DNA of 64,000 nt from Waddliaceae bacterium (GCA_963783885.1 CAWAPJ010000008.1:32001-96000); one strand, 5' to 3'; shown: positions 21,768-28,720, numbered from the stretch's first letter. Notes: generated by a model from the letters alone, not told the origin. Made by a program: numbers and translations.

Positions 21768-22580
21768 ATGTTTATACTATCTATAACTATGAATCAAAAA
21801 AACAATATAACAAACATCTGTTCGGATAACCTCTATCTGATTCTTCAATCAGTTAATGACGATAGGGTTATGAGGCAAGTTTGCAGTCAGTGGATGTCTT
21901 TGATCGAGTATCGTAACGAAGTTCTTTTCAACAGGATATTGAACAACTGCGGCGAAAGCGATCGGAAAACTATAGAAATTCACGCGAGTGGACAAAAAAC
22001 TTTTTTTGGCAGGATATCGACTTTGCGGATGATTTGGCCGATGAAAAAATTTGGGGTCAAGAATTCAGGTGATTGGGTCGGGCTGTTTGAGACTCTTCCC
22101 AAAAAAAATCCAGAAGAGCTCAGAAACTTTATTCAAACCATTAAAGACAATCATGGCAAAATCAAAAAAGTTCATATCGCTTTTAAAAATTCCTTAAAAG
22201 AATCACTGAAATATCAAAACCCCCTTGATACAATTTTGCTGGCGGCAAATGCCCTCAGATCGATCAAAGAACTAGACCTTAGAAATTCTCAGCTTAAAGA
22301 ACTTCCCTCCTCGATTAAGTACGTATCAAACCTCATTACACTTAATGTATATGATAACTATCTGAAGACCCTGCCTGAAGAAATAGGAGAATTGAAACAA
22401 CTGAAAAAATTGAACGCCGCTTACAACTGCATCAAAACCCTTCCAGCGGCTTTGGCTCAGTTGGCGGCGCTGCAAGAACTCAATCTCCTTGCAAATGACT
22501 CACTCAAGGACTACCCCTCCCCCCTTGATGAGATGAAAAATCGGGAGGGGCTCAAAATTTTAGTCCACCAGTCCGCGTAA
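21768..22580 (+). CDS. F-box-like plus leucine-rich repeat protein (putative effector)
   Basis: N-terminal ICSDNLYLILQSV...MRQVCSQWMSL resembles an F-box. C-terminal LxxLxLxxNxLxxLP repeats. Confidence 0.75.
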   Translation: MFILSITMNQKNNITNICSDNLYLILQSVNDDRVMRQVCSQWMSLIEYRNEVLFNRILNNCGESDRKTIEIHASGQKTFFGRISTLRMIWPMKKFGVKNSGDWVGLFETLPKKNPEELRNFIQTIKDNHGKIKKVHIAFKNSLKESLKYQNPLDTILLAANALRSIKELDLRNSQLKELPSSIKYVSNLITLNVYDNYLKTLPEEIGELKQLKKLNAAYNCIKTLPAALAQLAALQELNLLANDSLKDYPSPLDEMKNREGLKILVHQSA

Positions 22581-23753: not shown

Positions 23754-23913
23754 AATAAAATTATCCTTAAAATGTTATTGCTTTATTCGTATTATAGAAA
23801 TCAGATAATAACATAAAATTAAATATTTATAAAGATTTAATTAAATTTGGCTTTGTTGCGTAATTAACCACAGAGCTCACAAGAGCGCACAGAGAGAATA
23901 TGAGAGATTTGAT

Positions 23914-24858
23914 TTAAGCTGCTATTAATTCACTTTCAGGCATTCCCAGCTTTGTCATTATATTTAGTGCTTCACATTTTGCCCTTGATTCAGCCCTTTG
24001 GGTTTCCAGAGTTCTACTTCTTAAATCATTTCCAAAGAATCGTTTAAATCTAAACATGGCTGTTTCTGCAAGTGATCGACGATGATAACCTTTCAACTTT
24101 TTCCATAATTTTCTTGCATCATCATCACCTCCTAAACCTGAAATTTCCAGCAAACTGATATTCCGCATCTTCCAAGAAGGAGATATGTTTTCTCGAAAAA
24201 CAGCATTCCTATTGGGTGGAATAATAGGAATTGAGCCGTGAACTACATTTGCAGCATAGCATCGCTTAGTATCATAAGCCCCATCTCCATATGTGCGCTT
24301 AACTGATTTCGGCATTACCTCGAGAAGTTTTGGATACACTTCACAATCTGCAACGTTATTTTCAGTAAGAATTTCGAAAATAATTTCGTGAGAGTCAGGG
24401 CAGACTGCCAGATGGAGCTTTCTCCATGTTCGCCTTTTACTGATTCCATGCTGCCTAACTTTCCATTCACCCTCTCCGTACACTTTCAAACCGGTTGAAT
24501 CGATTACAATATTGGTGACTTTTTTTTTCGAAAGTTTCTTCAACTCTTGCCCCAACAACTTAGCTCTGCGACAAATTTGAGTATAAGAAGGAATCGATAA
24601 ACCAACAGATAAAATCATAACAAGAGATGTCAAAAATCCTTCGAGTGCTCTCAATGGAAGATGAAAAACCGATCGAATAATGAGCGCGGTGAGAATAGCG
24701 TCATCAGAATAGAGTTTTGGACGCCCCTTTTTTCCTATTTCTTTTGGAGCCATCCACTTATTGATAGCATCTTCAGAAAACCAAACAGTTATGCTTCCCC
24801 TTTGAATAAGAGATTTGTTATAGTCGTTCCAGTTGCGAATGCGATATTTTGCCTTCAT
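23914..24858 (-). CDS. IS5 family (IS903-like) DDE transposase
   Basis: YRIRNWNDYNKSLIQRGSITVW, IDSTGLKVYGEGEW, WRKLHLAV, DGAYD and GYHRRSLAETAMFRFK motifs. Confidence 0.97.
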   Translation of the reverse strand: MKAKYRIRNWNDYNKSLIQRGSITVWFSEDAINKWMAPKEIGKKGRPKLYSDDAILTALIIRSVFHLPLRALEGFLTSLVMILSVGLSIPSYTQICRRAKLLGQELKKLSKKKVTNIVIDSTGLKVYGEGEWKVRQHGISKRRTWRKLHLAVCPDSHEIIFEILTENNVADCEVYPKLLEVMPKSVKRTYGDGAYDTKRCYAANVVHGSIPIIPPNRNAVFRENISPSWKMRNISLLEISGLGGDDDARKLWKKLKGYHRRSLAETAMFRFKRFFGNDLRSRTLETQRAESRAKCEALNIMTKLGMPESELIAA

Positions 24859-24942
24859 CTTGATCCTCCAATTTGTTGCAACTAAAAATTAGAGTATTAG
24901 GTATTTGTCGGCAAGCTCGCATTCGCCCTTTTTGGAGAAAAG

Positions 24943-25347
24943 ATGACTAGTACCCACACAACTGAAGAAGCCAACCAAAAAAGAAATGACCTTTTAACAG
25001 GGGAAATCATAGGTGCTGCGATTGAAGTTCATCGAAGATTAGGTCCAGGCTTGCTTGAATCGACATACGAAACTTGTCTTTGCTACGAGTTGAACCTTGC
25101 GGGTTTGAAAGTTAACCGGCAGATATCAGTACCTATTAATCGTGATAAAAAGCTAGACTCAGGCTACCGGATCGATATGATAGTGGAAGATAAGGTTATT
25201 TTGGAGATAAAATCTGTGGCCAATCTCTTGCCTGTTCATGAGGCCCAACTTCTATCCTATCTTAAGCATAATGGTGGTGGCAGAGGTTTGCTCATCAATT
25301 TCAATGTAAAACTTCTAAAAAATGGGATTAGGCGTCTAATCATTTAA
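24943..25347 (+). CDS. GxxExxY protein (PD-(D/E)XK nuclease fold)
   Basis: IIGAAIEVHRRLGPGLLESTYE, YRIDMIVEDKVILEIKSV, HEAQLLSYLK and GLLINF motifs. Confidence 0.95.
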   Translation: MTSTHTTEEANQKRNDLLTGEIIGAAIEVHRRLGPGLLESTYETCLCYELNLAGLKVNRQISVPINRDKKLDSGYRIDMIVEDKVILEIKSVANLLPVHEAQLLSYLKHNGGGRGLLINFNVKLLKNGIRRLII

Positions 25348-25480
25348 TTCCTCTCTCATAATCTCTCAGTGAGCTCGGTGGTCTCAGTGGTGATTTATGC
25401 AACAACGCCATTAAATTTTAATGATGCGTGAATTCACGCTAGCGACCATTCCTATTGCCACTTTTCATTAGGCAATAAAA

Positions 25481-28400
25481 TCATTCAGACAACATTTCCA
25501 TCAGCTGCTTTTCCCATTCTTTGGGAGTGCTGACGGGTTTGAAGAGCTTTTGCGAGACTTGTTTTTTCTTTTCTATGCGAACCGAAACTTTGGAGACTTT
25601 GATGGTGTTGATTCCCTTTAAGGCGGCGGTGGTTTTGACGCGGGACATGTGGATGAGCCATTCGGCAGGCTCTGGAAGGGGGCCGAAACGGTCGATGAGC
25701 TCTTCGGAAATGGCGTCGACTTCTTCGAGGGAGACGGCTTCGCCAAGGCGCTGATAAAACTCCATGCGAAGCGATGGTTCGTTGACGTAAGTGTCGGGAA
25801 GGCGGGCGTCGATCGGGGCTTCGATTTTTGTCTCGGTAAAGGTGGCGGGGGTTTTTCCTTTGAGTGTTTGGACGGCCCTTTTTAGCCACTTGCAGTATTG
25901 GTGGAAGCCGATCGTTTCGACTTGGCCCGACTGCTCTTCTCCAAGGATGTTTCCCGCTCCGCGAATTTCTAAGTCGCGAAGGGCGACTTTCATTCCTCCG
26001 CCGTATCCCGATGTTTCGGCAAGGGCGGCGAGGCGGCGGCGCGAGAGGGCGGCGAGGGTGCTGAGTTTGGGGACCATGAAGTAGGCGTAGGCCTGGCGGT
26101 TCCAGCGGCCGACGCGGCCTCTTAGCTGGTAGAGTTCGGCAATGCCGAAGCGGTCGGCGCGGTCGATAAGAATGGTATTGGCGTTGGGTATGTCGATGCC
26201 GTTTTCGACGATTGTTGTCGCCAGCAAAATATCGGCTTTGCCGCTTTTGAATGTGTGGAAGACGGTGTCGATCTCCTGGGCGCTCATCTGTCCGTGGCCG
26301 ACGATGACGCGGGCGTGTGGGAGGATTTTTTTTATGCGGGTTGCGAGGTTGTAAATCGTATCGACGCGGTTGTGGATCACAAATGCCTGGCCGTCGCGGG
26401 ACAGCTCGCGTAAAAGCGCGCTCTTGAGCAGATCGTCGCTAAGCTCTGCGATGACGGTTTTGATCGGGATGCGGTCCTGGGGCGGGGTATTGATGACGGA
26501 TAAGTCGCGGGCTCCCATCAGGGACATATAGAGTGTCCTTGGTATAGGCGTTGCTGTGAGTGTCAGGCAGTCGACCCCTGTTTTGATCTTTTTCAGGTGT
26601 TCTTTTGCCCGGACGCCGAAACGCTGCTCTTCGTCGATAATCACAAGGCCCAAATCCTTGAAAACAATGTCTGGACTGGTGATGCGGTGGGTGCCGATCA
26701 AAATATCGACGGTTCCCTTCTCCACTCCTTCCAGGACTTCTTTTGTTTTTTTTGTCTTTTGAAAACGAGAGAGCACTTGGACGTTAATGGGAAAGTCGCG
26801 CATCCTTTCGGAGAAGTTTTCGTAGTGCTGCATGGCCAAAACGGTTGTCGGCACCAAAATGGCGACCTGTTTTCCTCCGTCGACCACGGCTTTGAAGGCG
26901 GCTCTCATGGCCACTTCGGTTTTTCCGTACCCCACATCGCCGCAGACGAGGCGGTCCATCGCTTTGCTTGATGACATGTCCTGTTTGACAGAGGCGATGG
27001 CGTCTATCTGGTCTTTGGTTTCGATAAAGGGGAATTCGTCTTCGAAAGCAGTGAGATCTTCGCTTCCTTCGGGATATTCGAAACCGGGGGTGATAGAGCG
27101 GTTGGCATAGAGCTCGAGAAGGTCGGAAGCGTAGCCCATAATGGCTGCTTGAGTTTTTTCTTTGGCCCGTTTCCATTTGACGCTTCCAAGAGTGTGCATT
27201 TTGGGGGCTTCTTCGGATGTGCCGATATACTTGGTGAGAAAATGGGCCTGGTTCATGGGAACGTAAAGGCGGGCATTGTCGGCATATTCGAGAAGGAAGT
27301 ATTCATTCATGGCGCCGCTTGCGTCGGGGCGTCTTTCCATTCCCAGATATCTGCCGATGCCGTTTTGCAAGTGGACTACCATATCGCCGGGAGTGAGTTC
27401 ATACGATTCCGACGGGGGAGTGTGGTAGGTGCTGCGGTGTTTTTGTCTTCGGATTTTGTAGCGGTGTGTAATCTCAGTGAGGGAGAAAATCACTCTTTTC
27501 TCCTGGGGAATGATAAATCCCGAAGAGAGATAGCCTAAAGAGACATCTTTATGAAAAATATTTCTTCCGGCAAGTTTTTTTTCAAATGCGTGTTTCTCCA
27601 CTTCACCGGAACAGAGTATCTGCCAGGTATCGGTAAGGTGCGGGTCGGCAAGGGTTTCCAGAACTTCTTCTTCCGAGGTCCCCTCATCGGAAAATTTAAC
27701 AAAAGGCGATTGGAATCTTTTGGCTTTGAATTTTCTGAGAAACATCTCGAAACCGATCGCATAGATTGGATTTTGTTTCGAGTAAAGGCTTCCCGAGACA
27801 TTTTCGAGAATTTCAATCTCGCTGAGCTGCTCAATGTTTGTTTGTGTGAGAAAAATTTTCTGAAAGGAATTCAATTCCTCAAGAAACTCTTCAATACTGC
27901 AAAAATAGGAGGAGCTTCTGCCTGCCATGCCGGTCAGCTTGGCGTAGCGGTCCTCGAGCGCGGTGAGGTTGTCGAGAATCACAATCGTCTCTTTGCCCAG
28001 ATAGTCGAGGATTGTGCTGAGTTTGGGGGCATTTTCGAGCAGCTCTAGCTCTTTGGCGGGGTTGATGCTGACGCTTTCGATTTTCTTGATCGATTTTTGT
28101 CCGATGGGATCGTAAATGCGGAGGGATTCGATCTCGTCTCCCCAAAATTCGATGCGGTAAGGGTCGGGCGATGATACGGGAAATATGTCGATGATGCCGC
28201 CCCGAACGGCATATTCTCCTTTGTCGGAGGCGACAGGCCGCCTTTCATAACCCATGCGCTCAAAGTGTTCAAGGAGGTCGTCGAAGGGAAGAGCTTCGCC
28301 GATCTGCAATTGGAAATGGAGCGAGTGGAAAAGAGAGGGATCTATCAGCTTTTGCAAGGAGGCTTGAAGGCTGGTGAGTATGATGTGGGGCTTTTGGGTA

Positions 28401-28720
28401 GTGACAATTTTTTCCAGGACTTCATAGCGTTCGCCGACAATGTCCGGACTTGGAGGAACTTTTTCCGACGGCAGGGTTTCCCAAGCGGGAAAGTCGACGA
28501 CAGGGGTGTCGGTAAAAAAACCGAAATCATGGAATAGGGCGGCCTCTTCACGGCTGGCCCCAGTCAGGATCAAAATGTGCTTTCCTGTAATTTTTTGCGC
28601 AAGGGAAGACAGATAAGCTTTGGGAGAATCCCAGAGCTCTTCGATTAATATATCATGATTTTCACTCAAAGCCTTTCGAAAAGGTTCGAGTACAGGTAAA
28701 GAAAATAAGTCTTCGGTCAC
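25481..28720 (-). CDS. mfd: Transcription-repair coupling factor
   Basis: [46 protein letters not shown] and QLRGRVGR motifs. Confidence 0.97.

Follow-up and report, generated by a model that had tools for sequence, protein, structure and literature searches.

An active insertion sequence (IS) of a chlamydia-like bacterium occupies positions 23849-25409 of the window, by which we mean the whole stretch of 64,000 nucleotides analyzed here (GCA_963783885.1 CAWAPJ010000008.1:32001-96000, from a Waddliaceae bacterium). This element is 1561 bp long, contains two ORFs and belongs to the IS903 group of the IS5 family. It is probably best understood as an active transporter IS, namely an IS903-group backbone that has permanently incorporated a GxxExxY cassette, the nuclease of which would be an array-binding selfish hitch-hiker. 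To our knowledge, no function has been assigned to the GxxExxY proteins, which are a very widespread family. The element provides a natural experiment on this family, since gene and arrays lie within an IS the movement of which can be read from target duplications, and it would be an example of hitch-hiking between selfish modules.

Anatomy of the Element

The outermost bases of the element are GGCTTTGTTGCG... at position 23849 on the left side and ...CGCAACAACGCC at position 25409 on the right side. The first-pass annotation of this DNA had placed IS903-type ends at these same positions, with a perfect 9-bp duplication just outside them, and this reading is fully sustained, as the sequence ATTAAATTT is present on both sides. 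The features of the element are the following, in their order along the window.

23840..23848, no strand: left copy of the 9-bp target-site duplication, ATTAAATTT, read from the sequence
23849..23866, plus strand: IRL, the 18-bp IS903-type terminal inverted repeat GGCTTTGTTGCGTAATTA, near-identical on canonical relatives that are devoid of arrays
23867..23896, plus strand: left arm with three CACNGAG-type units, ACCACAGAG, CTCACAAGAG and CGCACAGAGAG; similar arrays bracket GxxExxY genes elsewhere
23897..23907, plus strand: left inner part of the extended inverted repeat (AATATGAGAGA), from the repeat alignment
23914..24858, minus strand: transposase, a DDE enzyme of the IS5 family and IS903 group, 314 aa
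24859..24942, no strand: divergent intergenic region of 84 bp between the starts of transposase and nuclease
24943..25347, plus strand: gene of GxxExxY / PDDEXK_3 nuclease fold, 134 aa (135 aa in the other eight copies)
25352..25362, minus strand: right inner part of the extended inverted repeat (TCTCTCATAAT), from the repeat alignment
25363..25391, minus strand: right arm with three CACNGAG units, ACCACTGAG, ACCACCGAG and CTCACTGAGAG, read on the minus strand
25392..25409, minus strand: IRR, the 18-bp terminal inverted repeat, GGCGTTGTTGCATAAATC on the minus strand
25410..25418, no strand: right copy of the target-site duplication, ATTAAATTT, a perfect match to the left copy

The right arm begins 16 bp past the stop codon of the nuclease gene. 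The extended inverted repeat measures ~58 bp and is composed of one block of 33 nt (79%) and another of 25 nt (88% complementarity), which are offset by one indel. The arms directly adjoin IRL and IRR on their inner sides, which gives the inverted repeat its apparent length of 58 bp. An inverted repeat of this length, with three units at each end, had already been noticed in the first-pass annotation and is indeed present, but its description as extended IS903 termini does not hold, since the arms belong to a separate GxxExxY cassette. No promoter-like site was found in the 84-bp intergenic region, and a scan of the element for promoters and terminators gave counts at the level of shuffled sequences.

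A scan of the whole genome for clusters of at least three CACNGAG-type units, spaced by 7-11 nt, retrieved 36 such clusters, 32 of which lie at the ends of members of this IS903-type element's family. The remaining four correspond to two small gene-less units located outside the IS family (G000:C28:64019-64143 and G000:C40:1136-1238). These units, of ~100-125 bp, consist of three CACNGAG units, a core of 50-70 bp and three inverted units; they have no IS903-type ends and are the sole non-IS arrays in the element's own genome.

Transposase and Nuclease

The transposase ORF matches the profile NF033579 with 289 bits (cut-off 140), as well as the Pfam domains DDE_Tnp_1_5 (PF13737) and DDE_Tnp_1 (PF01609), and shares ~46% identity, across 99% of its length, with plasmid regions annotated as transposases of the IS903B and ISSod12 families. 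The second ORF matches TIGR04256 with 136.5 bits (cut-off 35) and PF13366 with 131.6 bits (cut-off 22). Its nuclease motif D...ExK, previously considered intact, is so in the window copy (D78, E88 and K90), which also has the complete set of GxxExxY residues (G36, E39 and Y42).

The window copy carries an in-frame 3-bp deletion at 25133-25138, by which a Tyr conserved in at least 90% of 79 relatives is lost (N66 is found here). The undeleted form is present in the other eight copies of the genome, as well as in contigs from all four public metagenome runs. The window copy of the nuclease, with Y66 lost, is thus a minority allele.

A structural model of the nuclease was built with AlphaFold2 from 79 sequences (pLDDT 90.1). 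Its structural matches include R.SwaI, with a Z score of 7.7 (rmsd 3.1, 114 aligned residues), and Hjc, with a Z score of 6.1 (rmsd 3.2, 86 aligned residues), the latter type being retrieved also by Foldseek (2wiw_A, E 7e-3). The modeled fold is that of PD-(D/E)XK nucleases of the restriction-endonuclease / Hjc type, all Z scores being below 8 and therefore too low for assigning the protein to a subfamily. Comparison with the PDB by sequence produced no match at E values up to 1. A survey of PD-(D/E)XK nucleases lists PDDEXK_3 as a group of unknown function that has undergone multiple transfers.

Copies and Movement as One Unit

The genome contains nine full copies of the element, sharing 98.4-100% identity and having both ORFs intact in every case; given that the assembly is 88.9% complete and split into 46 contigs, copy counts are minimum figures. 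Perfect 9-bp duplications, all different from one another, flank seven of the nine full copies and are absent from the other two. The nuclease gene lies between the ends in all nine, as in a transporter IS. The combination of both ORFs in 9/9 copies and duplications around 7/9 bears out the earlier proposal that the transposase and the GxxExxY gene moved together as one unit of 1561 bp. Internally deleted derivatives flanked by 9-bp duplications were found at C16 (a miniature copy of 378 bp), C28 and C33, the last two having one deletion junction in common; the derivatives at C32 and C6 are without such duplications. (Of note, one of the full copies at G000:C1:101558-103121 and G000:C8:142412-143975 has CAATA as its first five terminal bases, not GGCTT, and the other member of this pair is devoid of target duplication; rearrangement between copies may have occurred).

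Copies of the element in a genome of the same genus (G001) are 99.6-100% identical to that of the window, whereas the adjacent mfd-like gene is only 93% identical, and G001 has an independent insertion situated ~300 bp from the mfd-like gene. In four public metagenome runs, contigs split into several different flanks at 23849 or 25409/25410, with some breakpoints lying a few bases off the ends of the element. The word depth of these contigs was ~5-10 times higher in the element than in its flanks for the two runs that covered the flanks. No joint, hence neither an empty site nor a circle junction, was seen in the contigs of the four runs. A search for the empty site in related genomes found the gene of the left flank absent from both G001 and G002, and the intergenic DNA not conserved. 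The DDE transposase moves the whole unit of 1.56 kb, and this transposition has generated multiple copies.

As to the neighbors of the element in the window, the ORF at 25481-28720 on the minus strand (1079 aa) resembles by eye the transcription-repair coupling factor Mfd; its DNA is 93% identical to that of G001 and 82% identical to that of G002, against the 99.6-100% identity of the IS copies between G000, the element's own genome, and G001. On the other side, the ORF at 21768-22580 on the plus strand (270 aa) appears, again by eye, to have a C-terminal half similar to leucine-rich repeats (LKELPSSI..LKTLPEEIGELKQLKKL). Proteins with leucine-rich repeats are common among bacteria associated with amoebae.

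The Arrays Travel with GxxExxY Genes

Canonical IS903-like relatives of ~1.1 kb are present in three genomes of the same order, G007, G051 and G010, and possess neither arrays nor a GxxExxY gene. The canonical transposase of G007 shares 59% amino acid identity with that of the element, and the 18-bp ends of the canonical relatives in G007 and G051 are near-identical to those described here. The sequence ACCACNGAGNNCACNGAG has no match in the whole genome of G007.

For comparison with GxxExxY genes at large, we used the loci of the best 80 of 587 nuclease relatives, taken from contigs of one genome per species and distributed among Acidobacteriota, Planctomycetota, Chloroflexota, Proteobacteria, Verrucomicrobiota, one cyanobacterium, two archaea and others. 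Under a strict pattern, inverted CACNGAG arrays were found on both sides of the gene in 36 of these best 80 of 587 loci, on one side in 15 and on neither side in 29. At distances of up to 200 bp from the GxxExxY gene there are 1.64 CACNGAG clusters per kb vs. 0.042 per kb beyond 400 bp, corresponding to an enrichment of ~40-fold among the best 80 of 587 loci, and the 121 clusters observed compare with none in shuffled loci. The link between GxxExxY genes and inverted CACNGAG-type repeats, which had been put forward beforehand, is thereby substantiated for this sample. Neither of the outcomes that had been named as contrary to the first proposal, namely other copies lacking gene and repeats as after a one-off capture, and no enrichment of the repeat near GxxExxY genes, was encountered.

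The genes surrounding these loci were scanned with Pfam for 71 of 149 chosen ORFs, covering loci L090-L129, and loci L130-L169 were compared with an IS5 query only. The 71 scanned neighbors are ordinary operon genes, for instance carA/carB, ilvC/leuA and groEL/dnaJ, with transposases appearing exclusively at chlamydial loci. Hence, the GxxExxY cassette occurs without any transposase in many phyla (as judged from the neighbors scanned at L090-L129), and the arrays travel with GxxExxY genes, not with IS903-type ends. The existence of array-less IS903 relatives on the one hand, and of array-bracketed GxxExxY loci free of transposases on the other, indicates that the element is a transporter IS with an absorbed cassette. 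In a canonical cassette the gene is directly bracketed by inverted arrays and there is no transposase, a situation different from that in the element; here the right arm is cassette-like, the left arm is separated from the nuclease gene by the transposase gene, 1 kb upstream, and each arm adjoins an IS end. The element is consequently a fused derivative, not a canonical cassette.

Other Chlamydial Carriers of the Cassette

The fusion of IS and cassette is old and widespread in chlamydiae, extending beyond the genome studied here. Same-architecture elements, which the first-pass annotation had recommended to look for, do exist elsewhere. Within the same order but in another family, G011 has the identical divergent layout of the gene pair and ends that bear arms, with 77% amino acid identity for the transposase in a partial match (73% at a further locus that aligns in full length) and 68% for the nuclease. 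Moreover, the pattern of an IS end directly followed by an arm was retrieved in 13 of 401 sampled genomes of the phylum, in five of which it is multi-copy, and the reversed control pattern was found in none. The fused ends sampled in G194, G224 and G368 are solo ends or miniature derivatives, those of G194 and G224 having neither gene within ~2 kb. When the two-gene architecture was looked for at the fused ends of G194, G224, G368 and G288, only G288 yielded a fragment of transposase. At locus L172:314-450 of G194, an 18-bp IS903-type end lies between two arms of the same orientation, with an inverted arm next in line; insertion of cassettes or arms directly adjacent to IS ends is suggested by this layout.

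Chlamydiae have cassettes in no fewer than three kinds of IS. Besides the IS903-type element, G016 contains a complete cassette beside a two-ORF IS5 transposase of the NF033580 type, in a repeated unit of ~1410 bp, and in another chlamydial genome the cassette accompanies a transposase of the IS630 family at five loci, the unit being repeated at 99.9% identity. The 67 profile matches of G016 include many truncated cassettes, some of which are tandemly arrayed. In the tandem arrays of loci L083, L084 and L085, which have a period of ~340-350 bp, each truncated cassette retains only the last ~55 codons of the nuclease between inverted arms.

A different situation is found in G022, which has two GxxExxY genes, each followed by an arm-loop-arm hairpin, together with 75 arm matches across the genome, most of those listed forming close inverted pairs. 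A DNA search of G022 found no part of the transposase gene of the element.

Selection on the Nuclease Gene

While borne by the IS, the nuclease gene is under purifying selection (dN/dS 0.07-0.23). Specifically, comparing the active with the old lineages in the element's own genome gives a dN/dS of 0.07-0.14 (dS ~0.22), and the comparison with G002 gives 0.16-0.23. Two old copies with a broken transposase show changes at conserved positions of the nuclease (D78, G24 and A26), one having D78Y together with an in-frame deletion and the other G24S together with A26V. The low dN/dS values combined with the changes in these two old copies indicate that the gene is preserved in a living IS and degenerates in these two dead copies. 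Purifying selection is compatible with the earlier idea of a nuclease that recognizes the repeats or aids spread, without constituting proof of it.

How the Fusion May Have Arisen and What the Nuclease May Do

According to the explanation that we consider probable, the backbone would owe its movement to its own DDE transposase, with the 18-bp ends as substrate and a 9-bp duplication produced at each insertion, and the cassette would consist of a small PD-(D/E)XK nuclease gene plus inverted arms of CACNGAG words spaced by 8-10 nt. The cassette presumably entered next to one end of the IS, and ~58 bp of one end would later have been copied to the other. The G000:C6 copy, which has the same type of array at both ends, indicates that such homogenization of the ends does happen. 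A search for an internal relic of the left arm at the start of the nuclease gene gave no alignment above those of shuffled sequences, the one significant match being coding sequence; thus, the path of the fusion remains conjecture. Once inside the IS, the nuclease probably binds the word arrays and maintains itself as a selfish hitch-hiker spread by the IS, without being required for transposition.

Some observations do not fit comfortably with this explanation. The left arm of a canonical cassette lies at the start of the gene, whereas here it is 1 kb away, past the transposase gene, and the 29 loci scored as array-less under the strict pattern among the best 80 of 587 also count against it, as do the two full copies devoid of a duplication and the fused ends of G194 and G224 with neither gene nearby. 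Purifying selection in the IS lineage is difficult to reconcile with a pure hitch-hiker, and an accessory role would account for it at least equally well.

In such a role, largely that proposed in the first-pass annotation, the nuclease would be a factor of the IS that recognizes the subterminal arrays at both ends and promotes synapsis, excision, retention or spread, loosely like TnpB in IS200/IS605 elements. The intact nuclease gene in all nine active copies, its dN/dS of 0.07-0.23 in the IS lineage followed by decay in two dead copies, and the conservation of the architecture between IS lineages with ~75% transposase identity are all consistent with this possibility. So is the presence of arrays directly inside both ends in full copies, deletion derivatives and the 378-bp miniature copy, although their retention in the deletion derivatives may be only positional, because the arrays adjoin the inverted repeats. 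Yet canonical relatives with near-identical 18-bp ends have neither arrays nor gene, transposase-free cassettes sit between housekeeping genes in many phyla, and in unrelated IS types both arms are located on one side of the transposase gene. Overall, we regard an accessory function, the main rival, as unlikely, and retain the absorbed hitch-hiker as the probable explanation.

It is far more doubtful that the arrays are subterminal binding sites for the transposase, evolved within the IS lineage with the nuclease as a neutral passenger. In favor of it, the arrays are inverted at the two ends, where they adjoin the 18-bp inverted repeats, and the fused lineage has conserved them in several chlamydial families. 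However, 36 of the best 80 of 587 GxxExxY loci have the gene bracketed by arrays without an IS5 transposase, in other phyla; G022 combines 75 arm matches and two GxxExxY genes with no part of the transposase gene found by DNA search; and a neutral passenger would not give dN/dS values of 0.07-0.23. No less doubtful, finally, is a nuclease that benefits the host, such as a restriction-like or defense enzyme, which selection on the bacterium would preserve and the IS would simply transport. The predicted fold of restriction-endonuclease type, the purifying selection on the gene and the location of one relative within a type I restriction-modification locus (L108) would agree with this. On the other hand, a gene kept for the host would not be expected in nine near-identical copies per genome, its decay in two old copies with a broken transposase speaks against such a role, and the element contains neither a methylase nor an immunity gene, nor any other partner gene.

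Selection on the nuclease while the IS is alive, together with the joining of cassettes to three kinds of IS in one bacterial order, makes any action of the nuclease on the arrays directly testable.

Comparison with Known Systems

The element resembles IS903, IS903B and ISSod12 in having a single DDE transposase of ~310 aa, 18-bp inverted repeats starting with GGC and a 9-bp target duplication; its DDE transposase profiles, short GGC-starting ends and 9-bp duplication are those of the IS903 group. IS903 itself is ~1.06 kb long, and its known end and duplication values are those used in this comparison. Members of the group measure ~1.05 kb and have one ORF without passenger genes, whereas the element has 1561 bp, a second, divergent gene and an inverted repeat of ~58 bp that holds word arrays of three units. 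TnpB is the accessory nuclease of IS200/IS605 elements, and the GxxExxY gene is comparable to it in being a nuclease gene that lies inside an IS, beside the transposase, and is conserved along the IS lineage; unlike TnpB, the GxxExxY nuclease does not have a RuvC-like fold.

Because of its departure from the IS903 group in length and gene content, the element fits the class of transporter IS (tIS), defined as IS derivatives with passenger genes inside their ends (PMC9330008). As in the tIS described there, the passenger resides inside the inverted repeats, moves with every transposition and is lost only by events independent of transposition. It differs from these tIS passengers (PMC9330008) in being a repeat-bounded module of selfish appearance, the arms of which have now become part of the IS termini. 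In the available portion of the literature on GxxExxY, PDDEXK_3 and PF13366, no description was found of the arrays or of a fusion with IS.

A tentative generalization, which we put forward as a possibility rather than as the expected outcome, is that GxxExxY nucleases and CACNGAG arrays constitute a self-recognizing selfish system akin to REPIN/RAYT but based on a minimal PD-(D/E)XK nuclease, that in chlamydiae it has joined DDE transposons on at least three separate occasions, and that in the IS903-type element the nuclease acts on the arms, now the inner part of the IS ends, and thereby promotes retention or spread of the whole element. If this were true, the element would be a two-enzyme IS. 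The element is not itself a member of the REPIN/RAYT class, for the GxxExxY enzyme has a predicted PD-(D/E)XK fold and no Pfam match to Y1 transposases. Compared with the REPIN/RAYT systems (PMC3116915), which have an HUH Y1 transposase and REP palindromes, the GxxExxY family has an enzyme of the PD-(D/E)XK type and arms made up of 7-nt words in arrays, and in the element's own genome the module is almost entirely borne by the IS, with only two gene-less units outside it. The likeness to these systems (PMC3116915) lies in the wider GxxExxY family, where a single gene for a small enzyme, with inverted repeats on its flanks, coexists with numerous hairpin copies devoid of the gene, as exemplified by the 75 arm matches vs. 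two genes of G022.
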